A stretch of 41,797 nucleotides of DNA, taken from positions 1 through 41,797 of the IMG/VR virus record IMGVR_UViG_3300048072_000006. One strand, given 5' to 3'. Shown here in pieces: positions 15,408 to 29,534 of this stretch. A model generated the notes under the pieces. The model saw only the letters and a program-made list of their open reading frames with translations, ran no database searches and was not told the origin of the DNA. How positions within the stretch are numbered: the stretch's first letter is position 1; every line of letters begins with the position of its first letter. The stretch is from a virus. The position numbers and the translations under genes were made by a program.

Positions 15408-16586
15408 CTAGGCAGTTCCCATCGCCTTACGGAGTGCGGCACGAGCGACTGCCGTCATGTCCTTGGAATCGACGCTGTCCTCACTTGGAGAAACAGCGCC
15501 CGGACTGGAACGGATGGATTTGCGCCCGCTGGAGTCGAGGTCAACGCGGTCTGATCGGTCAAGGGCATCCGATTGGCTCTGACTGCTGCCGGGAGACGGG
15601 TTTAACCGTTCAGCCATGGCATAGGCAGCTTCGAGACGGTCTAGATGGCTCAAGCCTTCAGGTATCCTACCTGATTTCAGGAAAAATGCAATATCGTCAT
15701 GCAACTCGCCAAAGCGGGGATGGGTCTGCTTGAACGGGGAGACGATACGCGCATCAATGTCGCTCACGAAGCGCTCGGCCTTGAGCGCTTCATTCTCCTG
15801 CCGCAGCCGTTCGGCCTCACTGTCGCGCTGCTGCACCTGCATTTGCCGGTTGGCCTGTGCAATGGCCTGCTGATAGCCCTGTGGCCCCTGCTGGACGATG
15901 ACATTCGCCACCTCATAGAGCGAGAGTGGTGAACCGTCAGCCTTGCGCGGGCCGATCTCTGCAAGGATGGCATTCAGGCCTGCGATGGGGTTTGATTGAA
16001 GCTGATTCTCGATGTGATTGATCTTCAGAAGGCTCTCGCGCAGGTCGCGGCCATTTTGTTTCGCCAGATCATCGAATTGCCGCAGAGCCTCATAGCGCTC
16101 GGTATCCTTGCGCGCCGTCTCGATGGTGCTCTCATACTCGCGCACCATGTTTTCTATGTCGCGCTGCACCGGGCGAGGCGTGTTGATCCACTTTTCCCGC
16201 GCGTCTGGCAGCAACTTGGCGGGGGGATTAATCTTCGGCCCGTGGCCTTCTTCCGCCTCGGCTTCCGCCTTCGGCTCAACCTCCCTTACCGGCTTGGCAT
16301 CCGGTTCCTTGGCGGCGAACTTTCCGCCTTCTCCACGCGGCTTTGCCGGCTTGTCCTCGGGCTTCTCTTCCGCCTTGGCCGGCTCTTCCTTGGCAGGCTT
16401 TTCGGCAATGTCGTCCTTTTCAGGCTCCTTGGCGACGGGGGTGTCGTCATCGTCAGGCATGTCCTTTACGCTGTCGAGCGCGAGGCGGATTGTCTCCGTC
16501 ATGCTCGAACTGGCGCCAGAGGCTTCTGCCCCCGGCTCTGTCAGCGGAATGAATGTGTCAGCGGCGGGTGCTGTCTCTGTGGTCAT
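15408..16586 (-). CDS. Scaffolding protein, 392 aa
   Basis: Highly acidic, Lys/Glu/Pro/Ala low-complexity N-terminal third ('EKPAKEEPAKAEEKPEDKPAKP') followed by coiled-coil segments. It lies directly upstream of the capsid gene and has an ATGA overlap with the upstream gene. Confidence 0.75.
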   Translation of the reverse strand: MTTETAPAADTFIPLTEPGAEASGASSSMTETIRLALDSVKDMPDDDDTPVAKEPEKDDIAEKPAKEEPAKAEEKPEDKPAKPRGEGGKFAAKEPDAKPVREVEPKAEAEAEEGHGPKINPPAKLLPDAREKWINTPRPVQRDIENMVREYESTIETARKDTERYEALRQFDDLAKQNGRDLRESLLKINHIENQLQSNPIAGLNAILAEIGPRKADGSPLSLYEVANVIVQQGPQGYQQAIAQANRQMQVQQRDSEAERLRQENEALKAERFVSDIDARIVSPFKQTHPRFGELHDDIAFFLKSGRIPEGLSHLDRLEAAYAMAERLNPSPGSSQSQSDALDRSDRVDLDSSGRKSIRSSPGAVSPSEDSVDSKDMTAVARAALRKAMGTA

Positions 16587-16978
16587 GCTGCGATGTCCTT
16601 CGGGACAAGGTTGATCGGAGGAATGTTGCCGGACTTCACGTCATGAAGCGCCTTCTTGACCACCTCTACGCGCTCGGCCTCGGTCGATTTGACCTGCTTG
16701 AACACGGGCGCCGGCTCGTCCGAGTTCAGGATATGGAAGCGCTCGCCCTTGGGGTTGCCTTCCGGGGTCAGTGAGAACTCATAGGATGACTTGCTGTCAT
16801 GCATCCGCCCATCCGCGCCCATGATCGGCGCAATGTAGTCGGATCGAATGGCGGGAGCGCAAATCACACGACTTGCCTCCGCGCCGCATTCGCAGTGCTG
16901 CGGGCCATCGAACTGTGCAAGCGGAACAATCCGCTCGAACCGATGCCCATCAGCGCATGAGAAGTCATATAAAGGCAT
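16583..16978 (-). CDS. FmdB-type zinc-ribbon protein, 131 aa
   Basis: N-terminus 'MPLYDFSCADGHRFERIV...HCECGAEASRVI' follows the FmdB/CxxC_CxxC_SSSS pattern ('MPIYEY.C..CG..FE'), with the first CxxC degenerated to C-x3-H. Confidence 0.65.
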   Translation of the reverse strand: MPLYDFSCADGHRFERIVPLAQFDGPQHCECGAEASRVICAPAIRSDYIAPIMGADGRMHDSKSSYEFSLTPEGNPKGERFHILNSDEPAPVFKQVKSTEAERVEVVKKALHDVKSGNIPPINLVPKDIAA

Positions 16979-16980
16979 CG

Positions 16981-17244
16981 TTATGCCTTGAGCGCCGCGA
17001 TGATGGCGTTGACCTTCGCGGCAAGCGATGCAAGCTGATTGGCCAGCGTCGCCTCGGTATATGTGCCGGGCACATCGGCAATCGTGTCGCCTGCCGTGCC
17101 GCCACTGCTGTCGGTCAATGCGACCAGCGCCGCGATCTCAGCCTTGGTATTGGTCGCGCCTTCAATCTGGTTCACGACTTCCTGTGCCAGTTGCGGCACC
17201 ATCGAATTTGCCGCAAGGCGGCGCACGTTCTCTGCATCAGCCAT
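16981..17244 (-). CDS. Ala-rich helical head accessory protein (possible head fibre/decoration), 87 aa
   Basis: GGAAGGAA Shine-Dalgarno motif before ATG 17244. 'LTDSSGGTAGDTIADV...LANQLASLAAKVNAIIAALKA' looks coiled-coil-like. Function is tentative. Confidence 0.6.
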   Translation of the reverse strand: MADAENVRRLAANSMVPQLAQEVVNQIEGATNTKAEIAALVALTDSSGGTAGDTIADVPGTYTEATLANQLASLAAKVNAIIAALKA

Positions 17245-17258
17245 TGTCTTTCCTTCCT

Positions 17259-17528
17259 TCAGTTATAGAGGGCCAAAATGTCGCTGGCAGTCGTGTTGGT
17301 CGCCAGCACGCGACTGCACGAGACCGGCAGAAGTGTCCCTGCGGACACAGCCGTGAACACCCGAGCGACAGTGTCATCGGCAGCGATCACTTCCACATCG
17401 CCAGCCGAGCCAACCCAAAGTGCCCGGCATGGTGAAATCGTGAGATCGTTGTCGTCATGTGGCGTCACGGCTCGCACCCGGTTCGCCGTTTCCATTCCCG
17501 TGCTGACGGGCGGGGCCATTCTAGGCAT
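17259..17528 (-). CDS. Small protein resembling the RcGTA head-spike base family (Rcc01079-like), 89 aa
   Basis: 'RALWVGSAGDVEVI...VFTAVSAGTLLPVSCSRVLATNTTASDILALY' matches my memory of that family's pattern ('RALYVG.aGDl.v...G....f..v.aG..LP.rv.rV.atGTTA..lvaLy'). Needs an HMM check. Confidence 0.6.
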   Translation of the reverse strand: MPRMAPPVSTGMETANRVRAVTPHDDNDLTISPCRALWVGSAGDVEVIAADDTVARVFTAVSAGTLLPVSCSRVLATNTTASDILALYN

Positions 17529-19908
17529 CGTCTTTCCTTTCGTTCATTGCGGCTTGTTCGGCGAGCGACTGCTGACGATCAGCGCGATCATCGCCCCGTT
17601 CCGCGCGCTCATGATCCTTGGCGCGGAATTCCATGTCTGCCTGCACGCTCTGCGCATTCATGGCCTGATCGGACTGGCGCATTTCAACGTCAGCCACGCT
17701 CTTGAATTCGTCGATGGCCTGCCTTTGGTTCGCGAGGCCGATGTTGTTAAGTATCTCAAGCGTCTGGGCGCGGACCTTGTCGATTTCAGCCTCAAGCTTG
17801 GTCTGCGCCTGCTGTGCCTTTGTGCCCATGTCTGCCATCTGGAGTTGCAGCCTGTCGCGCTCCTGGGCCGCCTTCTGCTGGTCCGCCTGAGCCTTCATCT
17901 GCATCTCTGCCATCTTGCGCTGCATCTCGGCCTGTTTCGCGGCGGCATCGGCCTGCACCTTCATGTTGGCAGCCTTGGCCTTTTCCATCTCGGCCGCAGC
18001 CAGCGCCTTCTGTGCCTCGGCCAACCCTTCATCGCCTTCAACAGCGCCGGGCGCGCTCATATCGGGCAATGCCTTGACCAACTTGTCGATTGCCCCCTCA
18101 AGCGCGCGGCCGGCGCGATACGGGGCCACGGAGAACTTCATCACAGAACCGACGAATTCAGCCATTTCGCCATTGCCTGCGGCCAACGGAGCCGCCTGTT
18201 GCAGCAGGCCGCCGATCATCGTCACGAACTCGGCGCGACTGGATTTTTCCTGCATCTCATCGGTAAGGATCGTGCTGTCGCTTTCAATGTTGAACGTGAA
18301 GGACCGCACCCGATCATCACGCAGAAGCTCGACCACGGATTCAATCGCGACCTTGCCCTCTGCCTCCTGAAGCATAGGCGCGTACTTCTCGATGATCTGC
18401 CGCTGAGCCATCTGGTATTGCTGCTCAAGCTGCTGGGGGTCGGCCTCGGGCTGATGCTTGGCCTGTTCGACCTTGTCGGCCAGACCCTTCATTTCCTCGC
18501 CAGCGGCCTTCTCGATGTCCTTGATGCGCTTTTCGACTTCCTTGCGCGTCATCAGCTTCATGCCGGACATGTCGAGCAGGCTCTTCTGTGTGAACTTCTC
18601 GGCAATGATCTCACTGGCGACCTTCACTGCATCGGCGGCAATGCGCTGCAATTCGTCTATTTTCTCACGAACGCGAACCGATCCATACTGCGACTTGAGC
18701 TGTTGCGCCCCAAGCGTCTCTTCCGCATCGGTCGCCCCCCGCATGATATCGCTGATGCCGGACAGTTCATAGAAGTTATTGATCAACTCTTGTCGCGCCC
18801 CGATGAGGCCCGTGATTGCCTCTGCGATGGCTTGGAGCGGCATCCACTGTACGAAATCCCCAGCGCCCTGCTGCAACAGCGCGCCGGGCACGCCAATGAC
18901 CGTAGCATCGCTTGTGTCTGCCAGCGCTGCGCGGATCGAATCCGCCATATCCGCGCCACCCGGCACAAGCCCCTTCATCTTCACCCACTCAAGCAGGGAG
19001 TAGATGCGGCCCGTTAGTTCGCTGATCTTCTTGAAGTGCTCGACATAGCGCTCATAATCCGGAACAGGGGTAAGGCTGCGCAGTTTCGTCGTGCCATAAG
19101 CCGGGCGCGGGCATGGGAAGAAGTCACGCAACTTGAGGTGCGGCTCGCTCTCGTCGAGAATGTCCTGAGCGCCATCGGTAACCCAGTAGACCTTGTTGTC
19201 GGCGCGGTGCCAGACCTCCCACACGCCGCATTTCTGCGGGGCGCTGGTGTTCGATCCCGCATCCGTTGCGACATCGTTGGCACGGTGGACAGTGCTGTAA
19301 TTGGCCTTCTCAGCGACTTCTTCACTGAATCGCTTGGTCATTTCCTTCTTCGATAGCCATGAGCGCTTGGCAACCCATCCGACACGATCCCAATAACGGG
19401 CGCATTCATGGCGGAAGTCGTCACGGTCCACATGCTCGATGCACACACGCTGTCCGTCATCGCTTTCATAGGTGAGCCACATGGCTCCGCGTCCAAAGAA
19501 CAGCAGGTCGTCGCGGACCAACTTCATCACCAAGTCGATGTTGTTCTGGTCGAGCGTCGTGATCGCCACACGCTCCAGAAGCTCGGCGGCCGTATCGATG
19601 ACCGGGTCGCCATCGGAGAACTTGGCAGCAACAGCGGGGACGGGAGCCTTGGCGTAGACTGCCGGCTTCATCACCTCATAGGAAGACCAGAACAGGTCGA
19701 GCCGCCCGCCGCCGTCGGCATAGTCTTCGCCATAGAACAGGCCTGGGGCCGCTGATGTGGCCGAGTGATCGCCATAGACCATTTCGATGACGCGGCACTG
19801 GTCACGCCATGCACGCAGGCCATCGTCATTGTGCGCCTTCTCAAGCGCAGACAGGATCGGCCCGGCTGACTTGCCCGCTGCGATCGTGGTGGTTTCTTCG
19901 TCCATCAT
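17521..19908 (-). CDS. Portal protein with long C-terminal coiled-coil extension, 795 aa
   Basis: Large ORF immediately downstream of terL (ATGA overlap at 19908). The C-terminal roughly 250 aa are Ala/Gln/Glu/Lys coiled coil. The assignment is positional and size-based. Confidence 0.8.
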   Translation of the reverse strand: MMDEETTTIAAGKSAGPILSALEKAHNDDGLRAWRDQCRVIEMVYGDHSATSAAPGLFYGEDYADGGGRLDLFWSSYEVMKPAVYAKAPVPAVAAKFSDGDPVIDTAAELLERVAITTLDQNNIDLVMKLVRDDLLFFGRGAMWLTYESDDGQRVCIEHVDRDDFRHECARYWDRVGWVAKRSWLSKKEMTKRFSEEVAEKANYSTVHRANDVATDAGSNTSAPQKCGVWEVWHRADNKVYWVTDGAQDILDESEPHLKLRDFFPCPRPAYGTTKLRSLTPVPDYERYVEHFKKISELTGRIYSLLEWVKMKGLVPGGADMADSIRAALADTSDATVIGVPGALLQQGAGDFVQWMPLQAIAEAITGLIGARQELINNFYELSGISDIMRGATDAEETLGAQQLKSQYGSVRVREKIDELQRIAADAVKVASEIIAEKFTQKSLLDMSGMKLMTRKEVEKRIKDIEKAAGEEMKGLADKVEQAKHQPEADPQQLEQQYQMAQRQIIEKYAPMLQEAEGKVAIESVVELLRDDRVRSFTFNIESDSTILTDEMQEKSSRAEFVTMIGGLLQQAAPLAAGNGEMAEFVGSVMKFSVAPYRAGRALEGAIDKLVKALPDMSAPGAVEGDEGLAEAQKALAAAEMEKAKAANMKVQADAAAKQAEMQRKMAEMQMKAQADQQKAAQERDRLQLQMADMGTKAQQAQTKLEAEIDKVRAQTLEILNNIGLANQRQAIDEFKSVADVEMRQSDQAMNAQSVQADMEFRAKDHERAERGDDRADRQQSLAEQAAMNERKDDA

Positions 19909-21299
19909 CAGCGGCCTCGGTATTGGATCTGGGGGGCGACCATGATGCCGCCGCTCAAAGTGGATGGATGGGGTGGGGGCGCCGCCTTCTGAGCAGGCAA
20001 GGACTGATCAAGCCGCCATGCCGTAGCGAGATATCGGAACGCGTCCGCAAGGTGACTGGTCCAGTCGTGGACTTCGCTCGCCTTGAAGGTCTTGCGGTCG
20101 TCATCCCATTCGCGCCGATACATTTCGAGCGCAGGAATGCCTGCATCGTCACAGCGACTGTGGAACACGCAGCGAAGCAGGGTGCGCCGGACAGCATTAA
20201 TGCCATCAAGCTTGTTGGCCATCGGCACGACTTCAGGATCAAGTCCAAGAGCCTGCATCGTTTCAACGCGTGTGCGCCCCGTGCCCCACTCCTTCACACG
20301 AGCGTCATGCGGAACGTAATCCTTGCCCGACTTCCACCCGTACTGTTGCTCGCGCTTGTGGATGATCTCAGCGTAATGATCGACGCCAGCGCCTGAAGAT
20401 GTGTAGCAATCGAGAATGTAGAGCTGAGCGCCGACAGCCTGGAACCACCAGATTGACGTGTCATCGCGAACGCCGATGTCCCATGCCCTATGAACAGGGC
20501 GCCACGGAACAGGCTCAAGGTCTGACACGATGCGGCCCTCAGCTCGGACCTTTGCCATCTCACGGGCGTAGAATGCGCCCAGGATCGCAGCATTGAACGA
20601 GCATAGATATTCCTGATCGAACTGCGCCCTGCCTATGTCCTCGCCGTATAGCGCGATATACTCAGCGAGAGATTCCTCGATCTGCGCCGCGCTTAGCGCG
20701 CCAGTGTCGTGAATAGAGGACAGTTCAGCGAACCAGCGCCCGCCGTTATCCATATCGGCCTTAGCCATGTCGTAGAGAGACTTGGCGTGGTTGCGTCCGC
20801 GAGGCGTGGTGATGAACGTTGCCCAGCCTTCGTTCTCTTCCAGCATCGGACGAATGTAGCCCCATGCACTCGGGTTGGCCAAAGCGAACTCCGAGAACGT
20901 GACGCCAGCGATGCCAGCGCCGACAAGGCCATCATAACGATCCGAGCCGACAAGCTGCCACGTTGACCCCACCTTGAACCTGATGAACATTTCCTGCTCA
21001 TTGGTGCTGGCCCGAATGTCGTGAGGGAATGCTTCGTCTATCCGCCGCTTGCCCGTGTGTGGATTGACCGCTGACCAGAGCGCCTTACGGGCCTGTGCAT
21101 ATTCAGGGAGGCAGTGCCAGTAGCTCGCCACGCGCTCATGGGCCGCAATGGCTGTGCGGTGCAGGACAAGGTCATCCTTGCCCCACCGGCGATGCGCGAT
21201 CTCGATTGCCCGCTTGCCCCCCTTCTCCAGATATTTCCAGAGCGGGGCCTGATATGGCCGTGGGCGCCATCCTCCGTTTGGCAGTTCAATCGTCGGCAT
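19908..21299 (-). CDS. terL: Terminase large subunit, 463 aa
   Basis: ATPase-like 'AHRRWGKDD' and 'GVTFSEF'. Nuclease-half motifs 'RAWDIGVRDDTSIWWFQ' and 'HDWTSHLADAFRYLATAW'. The start was re-picked at ATG 21299 ('MPTIELPNGGW'), overlapping the upstream gene end by 14 nt. Confidence 0.9.
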   Translation of the reverse strand: MPTIELPNGGWRPRPYQAPLWKYLEKGGKRAIEIAHRRWGKDDLVLHRTAIAAHERVASYWHCLPEYAQARKALWSAVNPHTGKRRIDEAFPHDIRASTNEQEMFIRFKVGSTWQLVGSDRYDGLVGAGIAGVTFSEFALANPSAWGYIRPMLEENEGWATFITTPRGRNHAKSLYDMAKADMDNGGRWFAELSSIHDTGALSAAQIEESLAEYIALYGEDIGRAQFDQEYLCSFNAAILGAFYAREMAKVRAEGRIVSDLEPVPWRPVHRAWDIGVRDDTSIWWFQAVGAQLYILDCYTSSGAGVDHYAEIIHKREQQYGWKSGKDYVPHDARVKEWGTGRTRVETMQALGLDPEVVPMANKLDGINAVRRTLLRCVFHSRCDDAGIPALEMYRREWDDDRKTFKASEVHDWTSHLADAFRYLATAWRLDQSLPAQKAAPPPHPSTLSGGIMVAPQIQYRGR

Positions 21300-21606
21300 C
21301 AGACAGCCGCTTGATGACGATCTGTAGCGGCCCGCCGTCGTCGCCAGCGAGTTGCAGCGGAAGAACCTTTCCGAGCAGCGGGAGGAATGATTGCGGATTT
21401 TCTGTTGCCTGCTTTGCGAGATAGCCGACCAAACCCTCTTTGCCGCCTGCCTGTGTCGCGGCAGCGAGGATCGCATCTTTCAGGAGCGTGGTGTTTTTGT
21501 TTGGCACGCCTTTGGGGCGACCGGGGCCTGGCGTCCCATCGCCAACACGACGTTTCCCAGTCGTTTTTCTTTCGGGAGCGGCCTGCCCTTCCATGGGGCA
21601 GACCAT
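21286..21606 (-). CDS. Small-terminase candidate (DUF5681-like basic N-terminus), 106 aa
   Basis: Directly upstream of terL and overlapping it. 'GRPKGVPNKNT' resembles DUF5681-type proteins commonly found in this position. Confidence 0.55.
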   Translation of the reverse strand: MVCPMEGQAAPERKTTGKRRVGDGTPGPGRPKGVPNKNTTLLKDAILAAATQAGGKEGLVGYLAKQATENPQSFLPLLGKVLPLQLAGDDGGPLQIVIKRLSDADD

Positions 21607-21620
21607 TTACAGCATAGGAA

Positions 21621-21797
21621 TCAGCTTGGGACGGGGGCAAAAATCGCCGTGTCAATATTTTCTTTGCGCAGCATCCGCCTGACGTAAGATCGCTCTGCTC
21701 CAGTCACTCGGCATATCTGGCGGACAGGGCAAGGGCCGTGCTTGCGCCAGTAGTTCAATATCCTTGCGCGTGTCACCGCCGGCCTGCCCCGTGCCAT
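21621..21797 (-). CDS. Small HTH-like protein, 58 aa (below the ORF-track size cut-off)
   Basis: Hand translation: 'MARGRPAVTRARILNYWRKHGPCPVRQICRVTGAERSYVRRMLRKENIDTAIFAPVPS'. AAGGGGTAGG lies before the ATG. GC3 is about 65%. Confidence 0.45.
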   Translation of the reverse strand: MARGRPAVTRARILNYWRKHGPCPVRQICRVTGAERSYVRRMLRKENIDTAIFAPVPS

Positions 21798-21846
21798 ATC
21801 CTACCCCTTGGTTTGTTGATGATCGCCGCGTTCGATGGCGGCTGAA

Positions 21847-22086
21847 TCAGGCACCCAGCGGCCATTGCCCATCGGATGCCTGATCGACTTTAGCAATCGC
21901 CTCATCCGCCGCCGCGATGCGCTCGGCAACCTCAGCCCGCCGTATGGCATCGGCGAGTTGAGCCTGAAGATCGCCGACAATGCGCAGGCGGTCCTTGAAG
22001 CCGGTGAGGTCTGACATCGCGGACCTTTGCCCGCATAAAGGACATGCTCGATCCCCCTCTCGCTCTTGCTGGGGTGTTGTGGTCAT
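21847..22086 (-). CDS. Hypothetical protein, 79 aa
   Basis: ATG 22086 forms an ATGA overlap with the upstream ORF. 'MTTTPQQEREGDRACPLCGQ...' is followed by a helical C-terminus. Confidence 0.55.
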   Translation of the reverse strand: MTTTPQQEREGDRACPLCGQRSAMSDLTGFKDRLRIVGDLQAQLADAIRRAEVAERIAAADEAIAKVDQASDGQWPLGA

Positions 22087-22277
22087 GGCTGCATCCCCAT
22101 GGCTGACATAGGCCGGCGAGGGCACAGTGGTCCGCGACAGGTTTTCTCGGCGCCGGGCGGGCAGATGCAGCCATGCGTGATCGGTGAAGCGTGTCCGCGC
22201 TGGAGCTTGCAACCGCGCAGTCGGCAATCAGGGTCCGTGCATCCACACGCAACCGGGCGCGGATAGAACTCGCTCAT
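22083..22277 (-). CDS. Cys-rich small protein, 64 aa
   Basis: A strong AAGGAG lies 8 nt upstream of ATG 22277. The protein has nine Cys residues ('CGCTDPDCRLRGC...HGCICPP...CRGPLC'). Confidence 0.55.
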   Translation of the reverse strand: MSEFYPRPVACGCTDPDCRLRGCKLQRGHASPITHGCICPPGAEKTCRGPLCPRRPMSAMGMQP

Positions 22278-22323
22278 GCCAGCTTCTCCTTACTCACCAT
22301 CCCAGCGTTTCGTTCTGTGGGGT

Positions 22324-22950
22324 TCATGGTTGGTCTCCCTCGGTCATGGCTTCCACGACGAGCGGCGGGCGCAGCGCGTATCCTTCCTTAGTCCGCCGCA
22401 GGTATCCGCGCGTCTCGCCAATCGACTGCCAGCGTGGGGGAAGTGCATCGATCTCGGATTGCGTGATCGTGCCGTCGCGCATCGCCTGCATGGCTTCCTC
22501 CATGCGTTGCTGCTTTTCACGACCGATTGCGGCGAGGGCATTGGCCTGGTTACGCACCGCCTCGTCGTCGCGCTCCCACTCGGCCCCGATGCTCATGCAC
22601 TCGGCAATCGTGGGGAACCACTTGCATCGCTCAAGGGCCTGATCGGCGATAAAGTTGATCTGGTCTTTCGGCATGTGGCCGAGCTTGCGCTTGTAGGCGG
22701 CGACGAACAGTTCGCCGGACAGGTCATCCGAACCTTGGCGGGGCAGGGCAGCGCTCATGACCCGCAGGCATTGCGTGAAATGACGATCATCGCAGGGCGG
22801 CAAGGCGGGCAACGGGGCTACCGCCACCTTCTCCAGTTCCGCCAGTTGAGTATCCGTCAGGCGGATCGTAGCCAAGGCTCCTGTCGAGCGCTCTGGCAAC
22901 ACCGTCACGTTTGTCGCGATGGCCTCCGAAATTCTGATTGCCTCTGCCAT
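22324..22950 (-). CDS. Hypothetical replication-module protein, 208 aa (start uncertain)
   Basis: In 22801-22860 this frame has GC3 near 80%, against about 40% for the overlapping tail of the DUF1376 ORF. ATG 22950 ('MAEAIRISEA') is preferred; an alternative ATG lies at 22758. Confidence 0.55.
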   Translation of the reverse strand: MAEAIRISEAIATNVTVLPERSTGALATIRLTDTQLAELEKVAVAPLPALPPCDDRHFTQCLRVMSAALPRQGSDDLSGELFVAAYKRKLGHMPKDQINFIADQALERCKWFPTIAECMSIGAEWERDDEAVRNQANALAAIGREKQQRMEEAMQAMRDGTITQSEIDALPPRWQSIGETRGYLRRTKEGYALRPPLVVEAMTEGDQP

Positions 22951-23623
22951 TGTTTCCAGTCCTTGGATCGTAGATTCCTGCCCAACCATTCTCGACGCAC
23001 GCTCGGAACACTGTGCCGGGTGGCCATCCTGTCTCTCGAGACCAGTGGGCGACATCGCGCAGCAGCTTGGCGTGAGCAGACCCGCTGTTGTTCAAATGTT
23101 TCTTCTTCCGGTTCCCGAGGAAGTCCGACCAGTCGTCAGGGTCAGCAAAATCAGGCCGAGGAAATTTTTCAACGCGCGCGCTCTGTGTCGAAGAAGCTTT
23201 AGCTTCTGAGACTACTTCTGGAGGTGGAGGTGGAGGGGCATTGCGTTCGCTTGTGCGTTCGCATTCATCCGTTTGTTTGTTTTCAGCAACTTGGCCGTTC
23301 CAACGCGCATCAGCAGCAGATTTATTCTTGGCCCTTTTTTCATCGACAAATGCGCGCTCTTTGCTCAAGCGCTTCTGCGCCCACCCTTTCTCAGTGAGCG
23401 TCCAGAAGGCCATCACCGTGCTTTTAAGCTTCGCCCAACGGCCAGCGGTAATGCCCAGCATTCGCGCAAGGCGCGTGTCATCGTCGGGCAGAACGCAGTC
23501 GCTCGAGCGCCAGGCGATCATCATCAATTGCAGATACGCGCCATGCTCCTCGAGCGAGAGGTGCCGAGTGTCTGCTAGATAAGCATCGCCGAACAGCGGC
23601 ATTGAGGGTGCGTTGCTGCTCAT
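22787..23623 (-). CDS. DUF1376-family phage replication-associated protein, 278 aa
   Basis: 'MPLFGDAYLADTRHLSLEEHGAYLQLMMIAWRS...LPDDDTRLARMLG' fits the DUF1376 pattern. ATG 23623 makes an ATGA overlap with the upstream gene. Confidence 0.7.
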   Translation of the reverse strand: MSSNAPSMPLFGDAYLADTRHLSLEEHGAYLQLMMIAWRSSDCVLPDDDTRLARMLGITAGRWAKLKSTVMAFWTLTEKGWAQKRLSKERAFVDEKRAKNKSAADARWNGQVAENKQTDECERTSERNAPPPPPPEVVSEAKASSTQSARVEKFPRPDFADPDDWSDFLGNRKKKHLNNSGSAHAKLLRDVAHWSRETGWPPGTVFRACVENGWAGIYDPRTGNNGRGNQNFGGHRDKRDGVARALDRSLGYDPPDGYSTGGTGEGGGSPVARLAALR

Positions 23624-24309
23624 CAGTTGTTTTCGGAGTTCACCACCAGAGTATCGATAATCTCGTCGGCGCACTGTTCGGCGTCTGCGTAAATCTCCGA
23701 GCCAGTGAAGCGTAAAACGGTAATCCCGCGCCGCGCGAAATAGCGGTCACGCTGCTTATCGCGCTTAGCCTGTTCTTTGGTCTTTTCGTGGTACTGGTGG
23801 CCGTCGCATTCGACTGCGATCCAGCGTGCTGGCTTTGTGCTGCGCGACTGATCGTATACCATGATATCTACGCGGTATGGCCCAACATCTACTTGGGTGA
23901 AAACCAGTGCGCTCTTCTCATCCTCCATCATGGGGTATGGCGCGAAGTTTTCGAAATCGATCACGCGAGCAGAAAAATCTATCTCCTCAATGGCAGTCTC
24001 GGCTTGGGACATTAGAGCCAACATCAAGTGGCGCTCAATTGGGCTTTCGCATCGGCGGGCCATTAAATCGAAGCCCTCGATCCAGCGGATCGCGACGGTC
24101 TGAGCGAACTCCTCGCTCATGCGCTCTGTTCTGGCGCTAAGGTCTTCCCCCTTGCTACCCGTTACCAGTTTCATGGTTGGCACTCCCTTTCCCAGATACC
24201 TTGAACGATGGACCGACACGCGCGGGCCAGTCTTGCCGATGCACTTCGCGCCGGGCTCAACCCCGCAATCAGGGCAATGACGTTTGAACGCTGCGGCTCT
24301 CTTGCTCAT
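23623..24309 (-). CDS. DUF559/Vsr-like PD-(D/E)XK endonuclease-fold protein with N-terminal zinc-finger-like segment, 228 aa
   Basis: 'ESPIERHLMLAL...VGPYRVDIMV...IAVECDGHQYHEKTKEQAKRDKQRDRYFARRGITVLRFTGSEI' is the DUF559 pattern. The N-terminus has 'CPDCGVEPGAKC'. The region is visibly more A/T-rich than its neighbours. Confidence 0.7.
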   Translation of the reverse strand: MSKRAAAFKRHCPDCGVEPGAKCIGKTGPRVSVHRSRYLGKGVPTMKLVTGSKGEDLSARTERMSEEFAQTVAIRWIEGFDLMARRCESPIERHLMLALMSQAETAIEEIDFSARVIDFENFAPYPMMEDEKSALVFTQVDVGPYRVDIMVYDQSRSTKPARWIAVECDGHQYHEKTKEQAKRDKQRDRYFARRGITVLRFTGSEIYADAEQCADEIIDTLVVNSENN

Positions 24310-24593
24310 CCCTGCCGTGCCCTTTCATAAGCAGCGCGGTATTCAGGGTTTTCCCGAATGAGCTTTTCGGCCTTCTGGATGCCAGACATGATCGTGGTGT
24401 GGTGGCGCTCGCCCATGATGCGCCCGATGCGTGCGTAGGAGTAGCCCAGCTTGTCTCTGATCAGCTTGTAGGCCCCGTGACGGACGCAGCTCAGGCCATA
24501 GTCGGACCAGCCAGCCGCATGCCTCTTCAGGCCATCCACAGGGACGCCGAAAGCATTTGCAAGGTCGATCAGGATGCGATCTGACGGCTCTAC
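24306..24593 (-). CDS. DnaA-domain-IV-like HTH protein; 5' end unresolved (no ATG/GTG/TTG near the domain start)
   Basis: 'ILIDLANAFGVPVDGLK...CVRHGAYKLIRDKLGYSYARIGRIMGERHHTTIMSGIQKAEKLI' resembles Bac_DnaA_C. GC3 in this frame is high only downstream of the DUF1064 stop at 24590. The first canonical start is GTG 24539, inside the domain. Confidence 0.55.
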   Translation of the reverse strand, partial: VEPSDRILIDLANAFGVPVDGLKRHAAGWSDYGLSCVRHGAYKLIRDKLGYSYARIGRIMGERHHTTIMSGIQKAEKLIRENPEYRAAYERARQG

Positions 24594-24970
24594 CGGATTT
24601 CGCGCAATTCGATCGATCGATGCAGGTGTTTGAATATCGCTTTGCGCAATGGCCAGTCCCGGCTGTCCGCCAGCCGGCTCTTCGGCTTCACGTCCTCCGC
24701 GATCATTGAGCCATCCGCCGTCCTGTAGGAGAAATCCAGAGTCACCCCGGCGCGTTGGCCGTTGAGCATCTTCACTGTTTCCCCGGCTATCACGAACGGG
24801 TAGAATGGCTGGCGCTCCAGATGTGTAATCTCCCCCGCGCGTTCCAGCAGGGAAAGTTCCATGCATCGGCGCTGCTCCTTGGCGCTGTCGTGGATCAGGC
24901 CGCATACGCACGGTGTCCTTCTGGCTACGCTGTGCTTCGACGGGCCAGTTGCCTGCCAACCTTTCCTCAT
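24590..24970 (-). CDS. DUF1064-family phage protein, 126 aa
   Basis: 'HDSAKEQRRCMELSLLERAGEITHLERQPFYPF...DFSYRTADGSMIAEDVKPKS' fits the DUF1064 pattern. GGAGGG lies 3 nt before ATG 24970. Confidence 0.65.
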   Translation of the reverse strand: MRKGWQATGPSKHSVARRTPCVCGLIHDSAKEQRRCMELSLLERAGEITHLERQPFYPFVIAGETVKMLNGQRAGVTLDFSYRTADGSMIAEDVKPKSRLADSRDWPLRKAIFKHLHRSIELREIR

Positions 24971-25105
24971 TGTCCCTCCATGTCGCTTCAAGGATGCCGG
25001 CGAGGGGCTTGCGACCCAACTTCGCGTGATAGGCAGACATGCGCGCGAGCAGGGAATTGCAGCCCCTTGCCTGCGGTGTCGTCCAGCTTTCTCGACTTGA
25101 GCGCG

Positions 25106-25360
25106 TCACAGGTCAAACGCCCCCTGCATCCCGAGTGCCGAAGCATAGGCCTGGAGGATAGCAGCAGCTTCAGCGCGGTCGTTAGGGTCCATCTTGCGAA
25201 GGCGCACGATCTTGCGCATGATCTTCGGATCGTAGCCGGTCGCCTTGCCCTCTCCGTAAACGTCCTTGATGTCGTCGAAGATGCCAGCCTTCTCGCTTTC
25301 GAGCCGTTCAATGCGCTCAATGAGGAGCCTTAATTGGTCGGCGGCGATGATGTTGCTCAT
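25106..25360 (-). CDS. GapR/DUF2312-family nucleoid-associated DNA-binding protein homologue, 84 aa
   Basis: '[64 protein letters not shown]' aligns by eye with Caulobacter GapR ('LKSIIDRVERLEVEKAEI...[28 protein letters not shown]'). Confidence 0.8.
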
Positions 25361-25465
25361 AATTCTCTCTTCCATTCACGATCAGGCATTGAGGCACGAA
25401 GCTTTCGGGCTGTCTCAATGACCTCGCGGCGGTGTCGGGATACGAAGCGGCCGGACTCGTCGCGC

Positions 25466-25654
25466 TCAGTCGGCGTAGCGGATGGCGATGATGTCAAACG
25501 GCCAATCAGGCGCACCATCATGGATACCATTCCAGTCCTTTGCCGGGATGATCGTGGGGCCTGCGTGAGTGCCGGCGATCTTACCGTTGCGGAATCTGAC
25601 GAGGACAGGGCGCGCGCTCGTGAACGCTCGGGTGCCGGGCCAGTTTGTCCACAT
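25466..25654 (-). CDS. Hypothetical protein, 62 aa
   Basis: GGAGAGG lies about 10 nt before ATG 25654. Only the C-terminal 62 codons of track ORF 25466..26083 look protein-like; its Arg-rich N-terminal part is a shadow frame. Confidence 0.5.
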   Translation of the reverse strand: MWTNWPGTRAFTSARPVLVRFRNGKIAGTHAGPTIIPAKDWNGIHDGAPDWPFDIIAIRYAD

Positions 25655-25683
25655 GTCATGCTGCCTCTCCTGTGCGGAATAGA

Positions 25684-25866
25684 TCACCTTGACGTTGAGC
25701 GTCCTCGATGCGCTTGCAGGCAAAGCTGCGATTGTCCGGACGGCGGGGATGTGGGAGTACCCCCGCCGTCCAGCTTGGCGACCCGGTGGGAGGAGTCGTC
25801 GCCAAGAATGAAGAGCCCCGAACTCACCCGGAGAGCGGCTTGCCCTGGATGGGGGAGGGAGGGCAT
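25684..25866 (-). CDS. Possible small ORF, 60 aa
   Basis: Fills the gap and its start abuts the upstream stop. GC3 is about 68%. No recognisable motif. Confidence 0.3.
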   Translation of the reverse strand: MPSLPHPGQAALRVSSGLFILGDDSSHRVAKLDGGGTPTSPPSGQSQLCLQAHRGRSTSR

Positions 25867-26019
25867 TTATGCGGCTTCCGTGACGCTGATCACATCGCAG
25901 TTGAACTCGATGCTGTCGCCGTCGTCCCAGCCGAATTCGTCCGTGATGTCTGCCACGATGACGACGCGCAGGGGGCCGTCCTTCTTGATGCGCTTGGCCA
26001 GCCTCTTGCGGCCCTTCAT
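25867..26019 (-). CDS. Small protein, possibly AbrB/SpoVT-like, 50 aa
   Basis: The native start is probably ATG 26019 ('MKGRKRLAKRIKKDGPLRVVIVADITDEFGWDDGDSIEFN...'). The track's 15 extra N-terminal codons include 'MYIIP', which is encoded by the IS left inverted repeat. Confidence 0.45.
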   Translation of the reverse strand: MKGRKRLAKRIKKDGPLRVVIVADITDEFGWDDGDSIEFNCDVISVTEAA

Positions 26020-26041
26020 CACGTCGAGCAGGCAATAGGCG

Positions 26042-26049
26042 CTTGTGAA
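26042..26049. repeat. Target-site duplication, left copy (CTTGTGAA)
   Basis: The identical 8-mer is found at 28055..28062, immediately outside the two inverted repeats. Confidence 0.8.
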
Positions 26050-26072
26050 GGGAATTATATACATGACTCCCT
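26050..26072. repeat. IS left terminal inverted repeat
   Basis: See the mobile_element entry: 21/23 match to the right end. Confidence 0.8.
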
Positions 26073-26079
26073 TTTCCTC

Positions 26080-26934
26080 TCATGCCGCTTCACTCGAACA
26101 CCACGCGCCGCACTCGCTATCGGCAGCGTCCGCCTCAATTTCGTCCATTGGAAGCAAGGGGCTGGTTTGCGCGGCCCGCAGCACTTCGTCGAAGCTCTGG
26201 TATCCGAAAGAAAAGTTCCGCGCCTTTTCGTGCGCCGCCCAATACTGTGTGCCAACCGGATCGCGGCGGGCGCGGGATACGCGGGTCTTGAATTGGAGGA
26301 AGGGGCAATGATCGCAGTTGCCGGTCCCTCGCTCCAGCATCAGGTCAAAGGGCTGGACGGCCCAGAAATCCAAAACGTCACCTTTGCGCACACCATCGGT
26401 GGCCAGCGGGAAGGCCAACCTGCGCTCCGCATTACGAGGCTTGCGGGGCAGTTCATAAACCCGGTCATATTCGTCGGCGCGGAAGCCGATCACTTCGGTG
26501 TATTCGCCACGCGCGTAGCCTTGCGCCTCCATAAAATCATGCATCACGCCTACCTTGCACCGTTCGGTGCACCAGCGCCCGGTGATGGTCGAGAACAGGG
26601 CTTGCTTGCGGGCGATCAGCCTATCCAACGGCTCGCCCTTCCGGCTCGCGCTGTTGTAGCCAACTTCTTGAAATCGACTTGCCGGGCCGCCCTTCCTAAG
26701 ATCGGTCACAAATTCCAGCCAACTCACCCGGACGTTCCACCTGGTGGCGCACTCGTGAACGAAACGAAGAGTTTCCTCGCGCTCTTTGCCGGTGTTGGCG
26801 AAGAGGACGAATATATTCTCCGGCAGCGATCCGCCGTGGGCATCGATGATGCGCTTGAGCATCTTCCCGCTGGTGCGCCCACCCGAGAACGAAATCGCTG
26901 CCGGACCGGTGATGAGATATGGATTGCTACCCAT
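26080..26934 (-). CDS. PAPS-reductase/PP-loop ATP-pyrophosphatase-family protein (IS passenger gene), 284 aa
   Basis: PP-loop 'AISFSGGRTSGKML', 'RWCTERCKV', and C-terminal Cys cluster 'GNCDHCPF'. The start was re-picked at ATG 26934 ('MGSNPYLITGP'). Confidence 0.72.
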   Translation of the reverse strand: MGSNPYLITGPAAISFSGGRTSGKMLKRIIDAHGGSLPENIFVLFANTGKEREETLRFVHECATRWNVRVSWLEFVTDLRKGGPASRFQEVGYNSASRKGEPLDRLIARKQALFSTITGRWCTERCKVGVMHDFMEAQGYARGEYTEVIGFRADEYDRVYELPRKPRNAERRLAFPLATDGVRKGDVLDFWAVQPFDLMLERGTGNCDHCPFLQFKTRVSRARRDPVGTQYWAAHEKARNFSFGYQSFDEVLRAAQTSPLLPMDEIEADAADSECGAWCSSEAA

Positions 26935-27066
26935 CGGCCTGCGCCTTCTTCGCCCGTTTGGCGCGCTTCTTTCGCTCCTTCGCGGCATCTGAAACAGGCT
27001 TTGGCCGGTAGCGCAGCACAACGTCTGCAATCGCGTCCAGAGCGGCGGGAGGCTTTGGAGCGTCTA

Positions 27067-27987
27067 TCATGCGATCAGCGCCCCATAGGTCAGGCGCTTG
27101 CCCGCCGAATTGATGATAAAGCTATCCAGACGGTCCAGCGTGTGGCGCTTCACGTCGCCTTCGTTCAGCCGGAAGGCAAACTCATTGACGTAGCGGCCAA
27201 GGTGCTTCGGCGAGGCGTGGTGATAGACACCATGGATGCCGCGCTTGAGCACCGCGAACACGCTCTCGATACCATTCGTGGTGACGTTACCCCGGACATA
27301 CTCGCCAGCGCCGTGGTTGATCGTTTCATGCTTGTAGAGCAACCCGCCCACTCGGCTGTAGATTGCGCTTTCGTCAGTGTGGATGGTCGAGCCTACCTGA
27401 ACGTGGCGATGGGCGAAGCCTACCGCGTTACGCCCAGTGATCGAAGCCTTGACCTCCGCTTTGACGCGACCACTGCCCCGCTCCCGTCCAGCAATAACAG
27501 GCGTCTTGCCTACGCCGCCCCGGCCAAGTCCGAGCCGTTTGTGCTCGTGCTTCGCCGACTCCTTGCCGCCTACATAGCATTCGTCAATCTCGACAATGCC
27601 AGCCAGTTCAGTCGGATCATTGCCGCACGCTTCGCGCAACCGGTGCAGGATGAACCACGCCGTCTTTTGAGTGACGCCGATCTCCTTGGCCAGTTGCAGG
27701 CTGCTGATGCCCTTCCGGGCGGTGACCAGCAGATACATCGCATAGACCCATTTATGCAGCGGGACATGGCTGCGCTCGAAGATGGTCCCGGTGCGAACGG
27801 TGAAATCCTCTTTGCAGGCGTTGCAACGGTAATAGCCGCCCTTCCTCGCCGTAATCCTCTCGCCGCTGGTGCACACCGGGCAGCGCGGGCCTTCCGGCCA
27901 CAGCCGGTTTTCAAGGTAGGTGCGGGCGGTTTCCTGATCGGGGATCATCGCGAACAACTCGAAAGTGGAAATGGTGGACTTGGACAT
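27067..27987 (-). CDS. IS1595-family DDE transposase, 306 aa
   Basis: N-terminal zinc ribbon 'CPVCTSGERITARKGGYYRCNACKEDFTVRTGTIFE', followed by 'VEIDECYVGGK', '...IHTDES.IY...' and 'NGIESVFAVLKRGIHGVYHH', typical of Zn_Tnp_IS1595 plus DDE_Tnp_IS1595. Confidence 0.92.
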   Translation of the reverse strand: MSKSTISTFELFAMIPDQETARTYLENRLWPEGPRCPVCTSGERITARKGGYYRCNACKEDFTVRTGTIFERSHVPLHKWVYAMYLLVTARKGISSLQLAKEIGVTQKTAWFILHRLREACGNDPTELAGIVEIDECYVGGKESAKHEHKRLGLGRGGVGKTPVIAGRERGSGRVKAEVKASITGRNAVGFAHRHVQVGSTIHTDESAIYSRVGGLLYKHETINHGAGEYVRGNVTTNGIESVFAVLKRGIHGVYHHASPKHLGRYVNEFAFRLNEGDVKRHTLDRLDSFIINSAGKRLTYGALIA

Positions 27988-28031
27988 GGATTATTCCTCG
28001 GTTTCTCTAGCGAAACTAGCACAAAATACCG

Positions 28032-28054
28032 AGGGAGTAAAGTATATAATTCCC
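28032..28054. repeat. IS right terminal inverted repeat
   Basis: See the mobile_element entry. Confidence 0.8.
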
Positions 28055-28062
28055 CTTGTGAA
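28055..28062. repeat. Target-site duplication, right copy (CTTGTGAA)
   Basis: Identical to 26042..26049. Confidence 0.8.
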
Positions 28063-28067
28063 GGCCG

Positions 28068-28310
28068 TCACGACGCCCCTCCCTGTGTCCCGTTACGGGC
28101 ATCCTCGGGCGGATAGATGTCCGGGCGCAACTCGTGGCGAGGCAAGCCCAGCGCACGCTCAATTGCAATGACCAGTTGCGGAGGGCACGGCCTCTCGCGC
28201 TGGAACAGCGAGTAGAGATTGGCGGGAGTGCGATCTACGATGCGGGCAAGAGCAGGAATGCCGCCCGCCATATCTCGCGCTTTGGCGAAGGGAATGTGCA
28301 TTTTGTCCAT
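28068..28310 (-). CDS. Cro/YdaS-like HTH regulator, first gene of the leftward arm, 80 aa
   Basis: 'GGIPALARIVDRTPANLYSLFQRERPCPPQLVIAIERALGLPRHELRPDIY' fits the YdaS/Cro-type HTH pattern ('...IE..T.G.v.r.eLRPD'). The start was re-picked at ATG 28310; the track's N-terminal extension runs through the promoter region. Confidence 0.6.
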   Translation of the reverse strand: MDKMHIPFAKARDMAGGIPALARIVDRTPANLYSLFQRERPCPPQLVIAIERALGLPRHELRPDIYPPEDARNGTQGGAS

Positions 28311-28345
28311 GGCGTAACGATAGCGGCGAGCCTCGGGTAACGCAA

Positions 28346-28397
28346 CACAATTTATTTTACGATTGTGCTTGACCGAGCACCAATCGCATTTTACAAG
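28346..28397. promoter_or_regulatory. Divergent early promoter/operator region
   Basis: IR1 is CACAAT-N10-ATTGTG (28346-51/28362-67). IR2 is CGATTGTGC-N8-GCACCAATCG (28360-68/28377-86, one indel). The plus strand has TTGACC (28369-74)-N17-TACAAG. The minus strand has TTGGTG (rc of 28378-83)-N18-TAAAAT (rc of 28354-59). This is the most A/T-rich patch between the two arms. Confidence 0.4.
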
Positions 28398-28477
28398 GAT
28401 GACAGGCGCCACGGAGGGTCCATACTCTCCAGCACGCCCAAGCACAGGCAGCCGATTGCTGCTCACTGGAGGATAAG

Positions 28478-28648
28478 ATGACCCTTGCAGCAGAATTCTA
28501 CAGCGGCACCCGCGCTAAGGCTCCGGTGCTGGATATCGTGCGCATCGGAGACGGTCGTCGCGAGCATGTCGAGACGATCAACGTCATGGGCAAGCGCGAG
28601 GCTCGGGCAGTCGCCCGCGATCTCGGCGCCACTCCTTGGAACTTCTGA
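28478..28648 (+). CDS. Small early protein, 56 aa (below the ORF-track cut-off)
   Basis: Hand translation: 'MTLAAEFYSGTRAKAPVLDIVRIGDGRREHVETINVMGKREARAVARDLGATPWNF'. It is preceded by the same 16-nt TGGAGGATAAGATGAC initiation region as the next gene. Confidence 0.55.
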   Translation: MTLAAEFYSGTRAKAPVLDIVRIGDGRREHVETINVMGKREARAVARDLGATPWNF

Positions 28649-28709
28649 AGTCACCAGAGCACGGTCCCCCACCACCGTGCCGAGGCTGACTTTAGCTTTG
28701 GAGGATAAG

Positions 28710-29534
28710 ATGACAGAGCCAGCATTCCTGAATGAGAAATACGAGGCCACTGGCGAAACGAAGGTTTGGCTCGGCGTCACACTGCACCGCATCCGTGCCG
28801 TTGCCGCTATCGCTGCGCTCGGTATTTCCGCTGGCGATCTCGGCGGGTGGATCGAGAAGCCGGAGAATTTGCAGGCCTATGGCAACGCGTGGGTCTATGG
28901 CAACGCGCAGGTCTATGGCGACGCGCAGGTCTATGGCGACGCGCAGGTCTATGGCAACGCGTGGGTCTATGGCAACGCGCAGGTCTATGGCAACGCGCAG
29001 GTCTATGGCAACGCGCAGGTCTATGGCGACGCGCGGGTCTATGGCGACGCGCAGGTCTATGGCAACGCGTGGGCCTATGGCAACGCGTGGGTCTATGGCA
29101 ACGCGCAGGTCTATGGCGACGCGCGGGTCTATGGCGACGCGCAGGTCTATGGCAACGCGTGGGTCTATGGCAACGCGTGGGTCTATGGCAACGCGCAGGT
29201 CTATGGCAACGCGCAGGTCTCTGGCGACGCGTGGGTCTATGGCAACGCGCAGGTCTATGGCGACGCGCAGGTCTCTGGCCGAAATCACCTCGGATGGTTC
29301 TCCTGCGTCGGCAGCGAGAATGGAACGCTCTGTTGGTTCCTTAACAAAGACAAGGGTGTCACGGTCAATCGCGGATGCTTCTCCGGCTCGCTGGATCGGT
29401 TCCGCGAGGCCGTTGAGGAGACACACGGCGACAGCCCCAACGGGGAGCAATACCGCCTGCTAATCCAGTTCATCGAACTGCGGTCTCAGGATGCGCTCAA
29501 GGACTTTGATCCTGCCGAAGCGGAGGCAGGATGA
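28710..29534 (+). CDS. Hexapeptide-repeat (predicted beta-solenoid) early protein, 274 aa
   Basis: Start ATG 28710 follows GGAGGATAAG. N-terminal domain 'YEATGETKVWLGVTLHRIRAV...GISAGDLGGWIE', then 22 x (Y/S)G(N/D)A(Q/W/R)(V/A), then a Cys-containing C-terminal domain. A paralogue lies at 35394..35867. Confidence 0.8.
   Translation: MTEPAFLNEKYEATGETKVWLGVTLHRIRAVAAIAALGISAGDLGGWIEKPENLQAYGNAWVYGNAQVYGDAQVYGDAQVYGNAWVYGNAQVYGNAQVYGNAQVYGDARVYGDAQVYGNAWAYGNAWVYGNAQVYGDARVYGDAQVYGNAWVYGNAWVYGNAQVYGNAQVSGDAWVYGNAQVYGDAQVSGRNHLGWFSCVGSENGTLCWFLNKDKGVTVNRGCFSGSLDRFREAVEETHGDSPNGEQYRLLIQFIELRSQDALKDFDPAEAEAG
28878..29273 (+). repeat. Tandem repeat: 22 copies of an 18-bp unit (consensus TATGGCAACGCGCAGGTC), in frame within the CDS
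   Basis: Counted unit by unit. Variation is confined to four sites (TAT/TCT, AAC/GAC, CAG/TGG/CGG, GTC/GCC). Units 9-13 and 14-18 form a 90-bp higher-order repeat that differs at a single base (unit 11 GCC vs unit 16 GTC). Confidence 0.97.

Follow-up and report, generated by a model that had tools for sequence, protein, structure and literature searches.

The 41,797-nt IMG/VR virus record IMGVR_UViG_3300048072_000006 (hereafter the window, meaning the whole stretch of DNA that was analysed) carries at 26050-28054 an insertion sequence (IS) of the IS1595 family, inside which lie three co-oriented, overlapping open reading frames (ORFs) on the minus strand. These encode a transposase, a 47-amino-acid (aa) protein that we call 'sm' and, as cargo, a PP-loop protein resembling PAPS reductases. 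It is very probable that this is an intact and probably autonomous transporter IS (tIS) of the IS1595 family, carrying a phage-derived PP-loop gene inside a complete phage genome.

Structure of the Element

The ends of the element are marked by two 23-nt inverted repeat (IR) arms, GGGAATTATATACATGACTCCCT at the cargo end (26050-26072) and AGGGAGTAAAGTATATAATTCCC at the transposase end (28032-28054). Recognised both on reading the sequence and by a repeat finder, they are complementary at 21 of 23 positions (91%) across a spacing of 1,959 nt and form the longest inverted repeat of the region. The octamer CTTGTGAA is duplicated exactly at 26042-26049 and 28055-28062, and because these copies directly abut both arms the element can be delimited as 26050-28054, a length of 2,005 bp. 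The 13-nt IR tip GGGAATTATATAC, searched with up to two mismatches, occurs twice in the 41.8-kb window, once at each element end, where 0.17 matches are expected by chance and where two matches were reached in 2 of 100 shuffles. A sequence-only reading of the window had proposed these repeats and this target-site duplication, and both were borne out. The two arms differ at two positions (CATG vs. CTTT); the same mismatches recur in many relatives, and the variant CATGACTCC is also found at the cargo-side end of many of the sister elements described below. They are thus a feature of the lineage, and decay was rejected as their explanation.

When the element is removed, a 35-nt spacer remains between the stop codon of a YdaS/Cro-like gene (28068) and the next ATG (26019), and the empty site would read ...GGCGCTTGTGAAGGCC.... 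The insertion lies 5 nt past that stop codon and 22 nt ahead of the ATG and breaks no ORF, in agreement with the earlier statement that excision gives a continuous intergenic sequence. The element runs in the same direction as the phage early operon, and its G+C content (~0.60) is close to that of the phage (0.61).

The transposase gene (27067-27987, minus strand) encodes a full-length protein of 306 aa, which is the modal length among its homologues. Its translation shows the zinc-ribbon cysteines and the acidic motifs EIDECY, HTDES and NGIES, and its earlier description as an IS1595 zinc-ribbon/DDE transposase is upheld by three profiles, all above cut-off: PF12762 (DDE_Tnp_IS1595; 144.5 bits, cut-off 27), the zinc ribbon PF12760 (40.5 bits, cut-off 25.4, residues 16-59) and NCBIfam NF033547 (197.5 bits, cut-off 75). 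An N-terminal zinc ribbon characterises every group of the IS1595 family other than IS1016. Metagenomes hold thousands of homologues, and the database names of transposase homologues are only 'IS1595 family transposase' or 'transposase-like protein'. The closest match among 72,556 plasmids is 44% identical and that among 50,697 GenBank phage records 36%. Megablast with the whole element returned no match in GenBank phages or PLSDB plasmids, and a distant blastn search against plasmids gave only a 153-nt match, inside a Bosea PAPS-sulfotransferase gene.

Between transposase and cargo lies the small basic ORF 'sm' (26927-27070, minus strand; MIDAPKPPAALDAIADVVLRYRPKPVSDAAKERKKRAKRAKKAQADG), whose start overlaps the transposase stop codon as ATGA and whose 3' end overlaps the ATG of the cargo (ATGGGTAG). 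The transposase and the passenger had both been recognised in the sequence-only reading and are confirmed here, but this third gene had been overlooked. The cargo gene (26080-26934, minus strand) encodes 284 aa with the PP-loop SFSGGRTSG and is placed, as had been claimed, inside the repeats between 'sm' and the IR at 26050-26072, its stop codon being 7 nt from that distal IR. The possibility that it is a native gene of the locus with an IS beside it was rejected, given that the IRs and the duplication enclose both genes and that the junction of cargo and IR recurs elsewhere.

The Host Phage and the Junctions

That the element resides in a phage genome, as first proposed from the sequence, is confirmed by PHROG matches to a portal protein (667 bits), a large terminase and a major head protein (308 bits), alongside a virion structural protein, an amidase and tail-fibre-like proteins. 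Nucleotides 1-127 of the window are identical to nucleotides 41671-41797, which indicates that the contig is a closed circle and a complete genome of ~41.67 kb. Homologues of the transposase and of the cargo bear the names Sphingomonas, Novosphingobium, Sphingopyxis and Altererythrobacter, and the phage host is probably a sphingomonad.

A chimeric assembly had been named at the outset as one outcome that could undo the observation. The Logan assembly of run SRR35523485 (locus L001; loci are given L numbers below) is an independent one, and it is 100% identical to window positions 16080-28906, a stretch of 12,827 bp that takes in both junctions. The suggested search for phage variants with an empty site gave none, as an exact 28-mer spanning the restored junction is absent from IMG/VR, and an IS-free sibling phage was likewise not found by flank and junction searches. 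The exact YdaS-like flanking protein was matched only on the same Logan contig. Its relatives in IMG/VR are 36-39% identical over most of the protein, with one additional 28-residue match at 68%, and none represents a close relative of the phage.

A Clade of Sister Elements in Viral Contigs

In IMG/VR, 113 loci with a relative of the transposase were confirmed, and the best 80 of these (59-83% identity) were analysed. At 56 of the 80 loci, all within the range L020-L098, an element could be delimited in full, bounded by the same IR tip and flanked by 8-bp duplications without a mismatch. These amount to 52 distinct sequences of 1,308-4,344 bp, and every one of the 56 carries DNA beyond the transposase. 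The view that intact IS are uncommon in phages holds for the 50,697 GenBank records, which have no close homologue of the transposase (the best match is the 36% one given above); in the metagenomic viral contigs, this particular clade is common. In the 49 distinct target sites, A+T makes up 82% of the duplications, compared with 41% of their flanks, and no site has G or C at position 2 or 7. This gives a symmetric target rule, N-W-N4-W-N, to which CTTGTGAA conforms. Some of the elements are found close to phage hallmark genes: that of L020 sits between the head maturation protease and portal genes, and that of L049 near a terminase gene.

Several loci have additional features. The 4,344-bp element of L080 (2727-7070) contains a second transposase copy in the opposite orientation. 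Extra IR copies occur beside or beyond the element in L045 (4955-4989), L049 (7937-9064) and L078, a pattern suggestive of nested or tandem insertions, or of solo IRs.

The 47-aa ORF belongs to the backbone of the IS. A hidden Markov model built from eight copies detects it in 54 of the 56 complete elements, in 53 of which it follows the transposase in the same orientation; in L080 it is on the other strand. It has the motif P-x-x-LDAIAD-x-VL-x-YRPKPK followed by a tail rich in Lys and Arg. The protein matched no Pfam or PHROG family, and its 91 database homologues are without exception unnamed or labelled 'hypothetical protein'. A role as regulator or as DNA-binding helper is conceivable, and the protein may represent an undescribed accessory protein in an IS family that has been described as transposase-only.

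Within the clade, cargo is found upstream of the transposase, between transposase and 'sm' or, as in the window, between 'sm' and the IR. The second arrangement is seen in L042, L048, L051 and L088, where 'sm' ends ~26-35 nt from the element end. The window and L020 elements share backbone positions 1-1121 (IR, transposase and 'sm') at 80% nucleotide identity and are 97% identical over their last 37 nt, which include the TGA of the cargo; only the ORF between (element positions 1121-1969) differs, being an N6/N4 methyltransferase gene (92.6 bits) in L020 and the PP-loop gene in the window. The replacement is ORF-precise and cassette-like.

The recognisable cargoes of the clade comprise five DNA methyltransferases, four lineages of phrog_424 and one ASCH protein (L048), and most of the remaining cargoes are small ORFs without recognised function. 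Besides that of L020, the methyltransferases are a C5 cytosine methylase (L049), a Dam-like protein (L047; 27.9 bits, marginally short of the gathering score in Pfam, 28.1), a phrog_757 methyltransferase (L085; 222 bits) and a phrog_954 methyltransferase (L092; a weak match of 27.8 bits). The phrog_424 lineages, namely those of the window, L088, L031/L033 and L032, score 102-214 bits on the profile, and between them the best pairwise BLASTP identity is only 25-35% over partial alignments. That phrog_424 genes have been captured repeatedly, alongside orphan methyltransferases, suggests that both are selected for a common role, such as the protection of phage DNA from restriction.

Origin and Mobility of the Cargo

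Homologues of the cargo without an IS, 80-82% identical to it and with no IR within three mismatches, are found in phage and prophage operons. In L100 the homologue is the first gene, beside an S24 repressor; in L101 it is upstream of a GpA terminase; in L104 it is beside an integrase; and in L103 it is an ordinary phage or prophage gene. Since these close homologues are ordinary phage genes, the cargo was captured from phages. IS-free copies had been put forward in the sequence-only reading as grounds for regarding the passenger simply as a phage gene; they do exist, but at other loci of other phages, and the element is not refuted by them.

The same cargo lineage is present in two further places. 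The 36.4-kb viral contig L003 (IMGVR_UViG_3300043391_000280) carries at 5831-6876 a transposase-deleted derivative of 1,046 bp. In it the IR and the transposase leader come first, the first 14 codons of the transposase (MSKSTISTFELFAI) then run in frame into the tail of 'sm', and the cargo and the distal IR follow. Its cargo is 83% identical in aa sequence to that of the window, and the cassette, which is flanked by the perfect duplication CAAAGAAG, is located just behind a major head protein gene in this other phage. In L102 the cargo is 94% identical and the end from stop codon to IR is the same, after which the flank is unrelated. The junctions of the window, L003 and L102 cargoes with 'sm' and the IR are homologous, and neighbour-joining places these three IS-borne copies as a cluster among those that are IS-free. 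This recurrence of one cargo lineage with its IR end at two further sites demonstrates, at the level of sequence, that the unit of cargo and IR is mobile.

Ratios of non-synonymous to synonymous change (dN/dS) of 0.054 (window vs. L102) and 0.079 (window vs. L003), and of 0.05-0.09 against IS-borne copies overall, indicate that the cargo is under purifying selection. The most economical account would be a single capture from the phage gene pool followed by transposition and by long retention under purifying selection, even after loss of the transposase. Scans with the passenger of metagenomes (15 loci) and of GTDB genomes (4 loci) gave no copy with an IR, although the peptide-pattern method probably missed closer copies.

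The Cargo Protein

The cargo matches the PHROG profile phrog_424 'PAPS reductase' with 129 bits (E = 4.7e-37, residues 5-280), whereas its score against Pfam PF01507 (PAPS_reduct) is 20.9 bits, under the gathering score of 22.5; a precomputed PF01507 match is present in ~12 of the 120 homologues listed. A tblastn search hit 436 GenBank phage records, the best of them at 40-45% identity over the full length and annotated as 'NinC-like recombination protein' or PAPS reductase. The AlphaFold2 model (mean pLDDT 88, pTM 0.86) has as its top Foldseek matches in the PDB CysH and APS reductases, the [4Fe-4S] tRNA thiolases NcsA and TtuA, and LarE. Their TM-scores reach only 0.33-0.54 among the matches listed, so that the fold is matched at superfamily level only, and a PDB sequence search with the cargo profile gave nothing significant. 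The earlier assignment of the passenger as PAPS-reductase/DndC/IbrA-like stands in its first part through the phrog_424 match. In its second part it was rejected, as the NCBIfam models PRK06850, PRK13795 and PRK08557 score 15-20 bits against cut-offs of 366-1086; there is also no partner gene (DndA/D/E, or the ParB-like IbrB) inside the element.

Invariant across 37 homologues are S17, G18, G19 and S22 of the PP-loop, C122, the pair C207-x-x-C210, and C275 and C279, the last two lying on a flexible, low-confidence C-terminal tail of the model, with C275 in the motif SECGAWC. A canonical SGGxxS loop is the signature of ATP-pyrophosphatases that adenylate their substrate, such as TtuA, QueC and DndC, and is lost in CysH, which has SSFG. 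A triad of cysteines suits an Fe-S or persulfide centre, while the ECG motif resembles the catalytic C-terminal tail of CysH, ECGLH. The canonical loop together with the cysteine triad would therefore favour ATP-dependent sulfur or adenylation chemistry on nucleic acid. We tentatively propose, with somewhat less than even confidence, that the cargo would carry out ATP-dependent adenylation followed by sulfur chemistry on nucleic acid and would in this way mark or protect phage DNA.

Relation to Known Systems

The tIS were introduced by Siguier, Gagnevin & Chandler in 2009, according to the passage of PMC3129680 that cites their work, and the class has been stated to be limited to the IS1595 and IS66 families (bioRxiv 10.1101/2021.05.26.445724). 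The window element shares with the tIS of the IS1595 family a single zinc-ribbon DDE transposase, IRs that start with GG, a target duplication of 8 bp and a passenger enclosed by the repeats, and because it has every IS1595-family and tIS feature that could be tested we place it in this known class; it is an addition to an established category. It differs in that it resides in a phage genome and that its cargo is a phage-derived PP-loop enzyme. In addition, the IS1595 family has been described with a single transposase gene (PMC8101967), whereas the clade has the conserved 47-aa ORF. Less ordinary than the element's class are thus the phage residency of the clade, the small ORF, the transposase-less cassette and the recurrence of PAPS-reductase-like and methyltransferase cargo. 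The ends of the window element (GGGAATTAT) are consistent with ggnnatTAT, which we take to be the end consensus that ISfinder gives for the ISNwi1 group, and assignment to that subgroup would be provisional. No publication was found on IS1595 tIS in phages or on a second small ORF; the primary 2009 description, ISfinder and TnPedia were outside the coverage of this search, so an earlier description is possible.

The L003 cassette can be compared with the mobile insertion cassettes, such as MIC231 of IS231 (a concept cited in PMC3129680), in that it has IRs, cargo and a perfect duplication and no transposase. The likeness is that of L003, as the window element retains its transposase. L003 is a deletion derivative of a tIS of the window type, because the transposase leader and 14 codons remain, and on this analogy the cassette could be moved only with a transposase supplied in trans.

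Among 'NinC-like' members of phrog_424, proteins of Rhizobium phage RHph_I1_23, Microcystis phage Mae-JY30 and Erythrobacter phage vB_EliS_R6L are 40-45% identical to the cargo; the window gene differs from other phrog_424 genes in being IS-borne. We know of no phrog_424 member with a demonstrated function and, to our knowledge, lambda NinC still lacks an explanation. A precedent for DNA modification is given by DndC/SspD and BrxP, the PAPS-reductase-like enzymes of DNA phosphorothioation and of type-4 BREX, respectively (PMC12707154, PMC12839542). The cargo shares with these the superfamily fold, the PP-loop and conserved cysteines suited to Fe-S chemistry or sulfur transfer, but is much smaller, and no Dnd, Ssp or Brx partners are present in the element or among the roughly one dozen annotated ORFs of the window, which was not screened systematically. 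Orphan DNA methyltransferases are regarded as mobile or flexible phage genes with a presumed anti-restriction role (PMC7468147). In L020, L047, L049, L085 and L092 such genes hold the cargo position, with a chemistry that differs from that of the window cargo, and PMC7468147 draws no link between methyltransferase mobility and the tIS of the IS1595 family.

Interpretation and Alternatives

Taken as an intact tIS, the element would have inserted at an A/T-biased octamer within the 35-nt spacer that follows the cro/YdaS-like gene. Its backbone would consist of the IRs, the transposase and the translationally coupled 47-aa protein, with one cargo gene filling the slot between 'sm' and the distal IR. 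All three ORFs could be read by early transcription as well as from the element's own promoter, because their orientation matches that of the early operon. The cargo would have been captured once from the phage gene pool and subsequently carried to at least three sites. Its product would adenylate with ATP and then perform cysteine- or Fe-S-based sulfur chemistry on nucleic acid, and would thereby mark or protect phage DNA, in parallel to the orphan methyltransferases in the slots of sister elements.

The metagenomic source of the window and the standing of IS elements as classic sites of misassembly raise the question of an assembly chimera, in which a bacterial IS has been collapsed into a phage contig. 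This has, however, largely been refuted already and is extremely improbable, as the perfect 8-bp duplication and an intergenic insertion that restores a continuous spacer on removal are joined by the identical Logan assembly (12.8 kb across both junctions), the circular closure of the contig and the presence of sister elements between phage structural genes in other contigs. Another alternative, which we find unlikely, is that the element is a dead relic of a one-time insertion, with an inactive transposase and a cargo that is now an ordinary phage moron. A relic would fit the single copy in the window, the equal G+C contents of element and phage, the failure to find an empty-site variant and the persistence of cargo without transposase in L003. 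It fits less well with a transposase that has the full length of most homologues and intact zinc-ribbon and acidic motifs, with the perfection of the duplication, or with the two IR mismatches, which sister elements share and which are not random decay; furthermore, the 49 distinct clade sites with perfect duplications point to recent activity of close relatives.

With regard to the cargo, the IS could be the incidental carrier of a true auxiliary metabolic gene (AMG), whose product, a CysH-like PAPS/APS reductase, would enhance the assimilatory reduction of sulfate by the infected host. Phage PAPS reductase is treated and counted as a sulfur AMG in the current literature (PMC13369170), the PHROG annotation reads 'PAPS reductase' and the best Foldseek matches include CysH (6vpu, 1sur) and APS reductases (2goy, 7lhr, 4bwv). 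The invariant C275, in its ECG motif on a flexible tail, would also suit a CysH-like enzyme. We nevertheless consider this quite unlikely, given the retention of the SGGxxS loop that CysH lacks, the sub-threshold PF01507 score and low TM-scores, and the equally good structural neighbours among the tRNA thiolases NcsA and TtuA and in LarE. Moreover, the slots of sister elements carry DNA methyltransferases and an ASCH protein and no metabolic genes, and the native homologues lie in early or nin-like phage regions beside repressor, integrase or terminase genes.

Several points weigh against the preferred reading of an intact tIS whose phage-derived cargo acts on nucleic acid. Current activity of the element is putative, because the window holds one copy and no empty-site relative was found. 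Divergence at synonymous sites between the window and L003 cargoes is saturated (dS ~1.5) and the neighbour-joining tree carries no support values, so that the case for a single capture is made chiefly by the homologous junctions, and some IMG/VR contigs may include host DNA. The tentative link between the slot and DNA modification is drawn from ~11 recognisable cargoes among 52 distinct elements. With PF01507 just below its gathering score and TM-scores of this size, the assignment of the cargo is one at superfamily level, and a role in sulfur metabolism may be entertained in view of the genuine sulfonucleotide reductases among the top structural neighbours of the model and the resemblance of ECG to ECGLH.

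A wider and more speculative reading, which we regard as somewhat unlikely, is that the clade constitutes a phage-adapted gene shuttle made up of tIS and transposase-less cassettes, which would target A/T-rich intergenic octamers of phage genomes, require the previously undescribed 47-aa accessory protein, and repeatedly capture and exchange anti-restriction genes for DNA modification. If this were true, the phrog_424 'PAPS reductase/NinC' proteins, captured at least four independent times, would be nucleic-acid-modifying enzymes and not sulfur AMGs, as which phage 'PAPS reductases' are routinely scored in virome studies. 

As to wider significance, the interchangeable slot, filled either by a methyltransferase or by a phrog_424 gene, provides independent circumstantial evidence that phage 'PAPS reductases' act on nucleic acid. 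The clade, which has been found even between capsid and portal genes and with perfect target duplications, also offers a concrete mechanism for the movement of single accessory genes between phages, of which the 'flexible' orphan methyltransferases of phage pan-genomes are one example.

Flanking Genes and Promoter-Like Sites

The gene upstream of the element (28068-28466, minus strand) encodes the YdaS/Cro-like helix-turn-helix protein (PF15943, 37.2 bits) and corresponds to a 114-aa gene call of the Logan assembly. Downstream, a 65-aa gene call (25867-26064, minus strand) has its start ATG inside the IR and is thus an IS-phage hybrid; the native start of this phage ORF is probably the ATG at 26019. 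Further early genes follow at ~23600-25400 on the minus strand, for which the Logan gene calls give GapR-like (PF10073), DUF1064, DnaA_C-like and DUF559/MTES_1575 products, the last of these having a Vsr-like endonuclease fold.

Promoter-like sites are found at both ends of the element, and their function is proposed from consensus matches only. At the cargo end, an outward site (26054-26083, minus strand; ATGAGA-18-TATAAT, 10 of 12 consensus matches) points into the downstream phage genes. Its perfect TATAAT (26054-26059) lies inside the IR, 5 nt from the tip, and occurs facing outward in both IRs of the clade. It could create hybrid promoters that drive neighbouring genes and, in the distal IR of the window, may help to keep the downstream phage genes expressed. 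At the transposase end, the leader (27988-28031, minus strand) together with the IR contains a -35-like TTTACT and, 17 nt on, TAGTTT, a layout that is conserved in sister elements. This site was not called by the consensus scan; the -35-like hexamer in the transposase-side IR is also present in relatives.

Beside the YdaS-like gene and divergent from it is a 349-aa ORF (28485-29534, plus strand). It contains a repeat array at 28871-29279, made up of an 18-bp unit that is repeated in tandem 22.7 times (90% matches) and that encodes the hexapeptide YGNAQV or YGDAQV.

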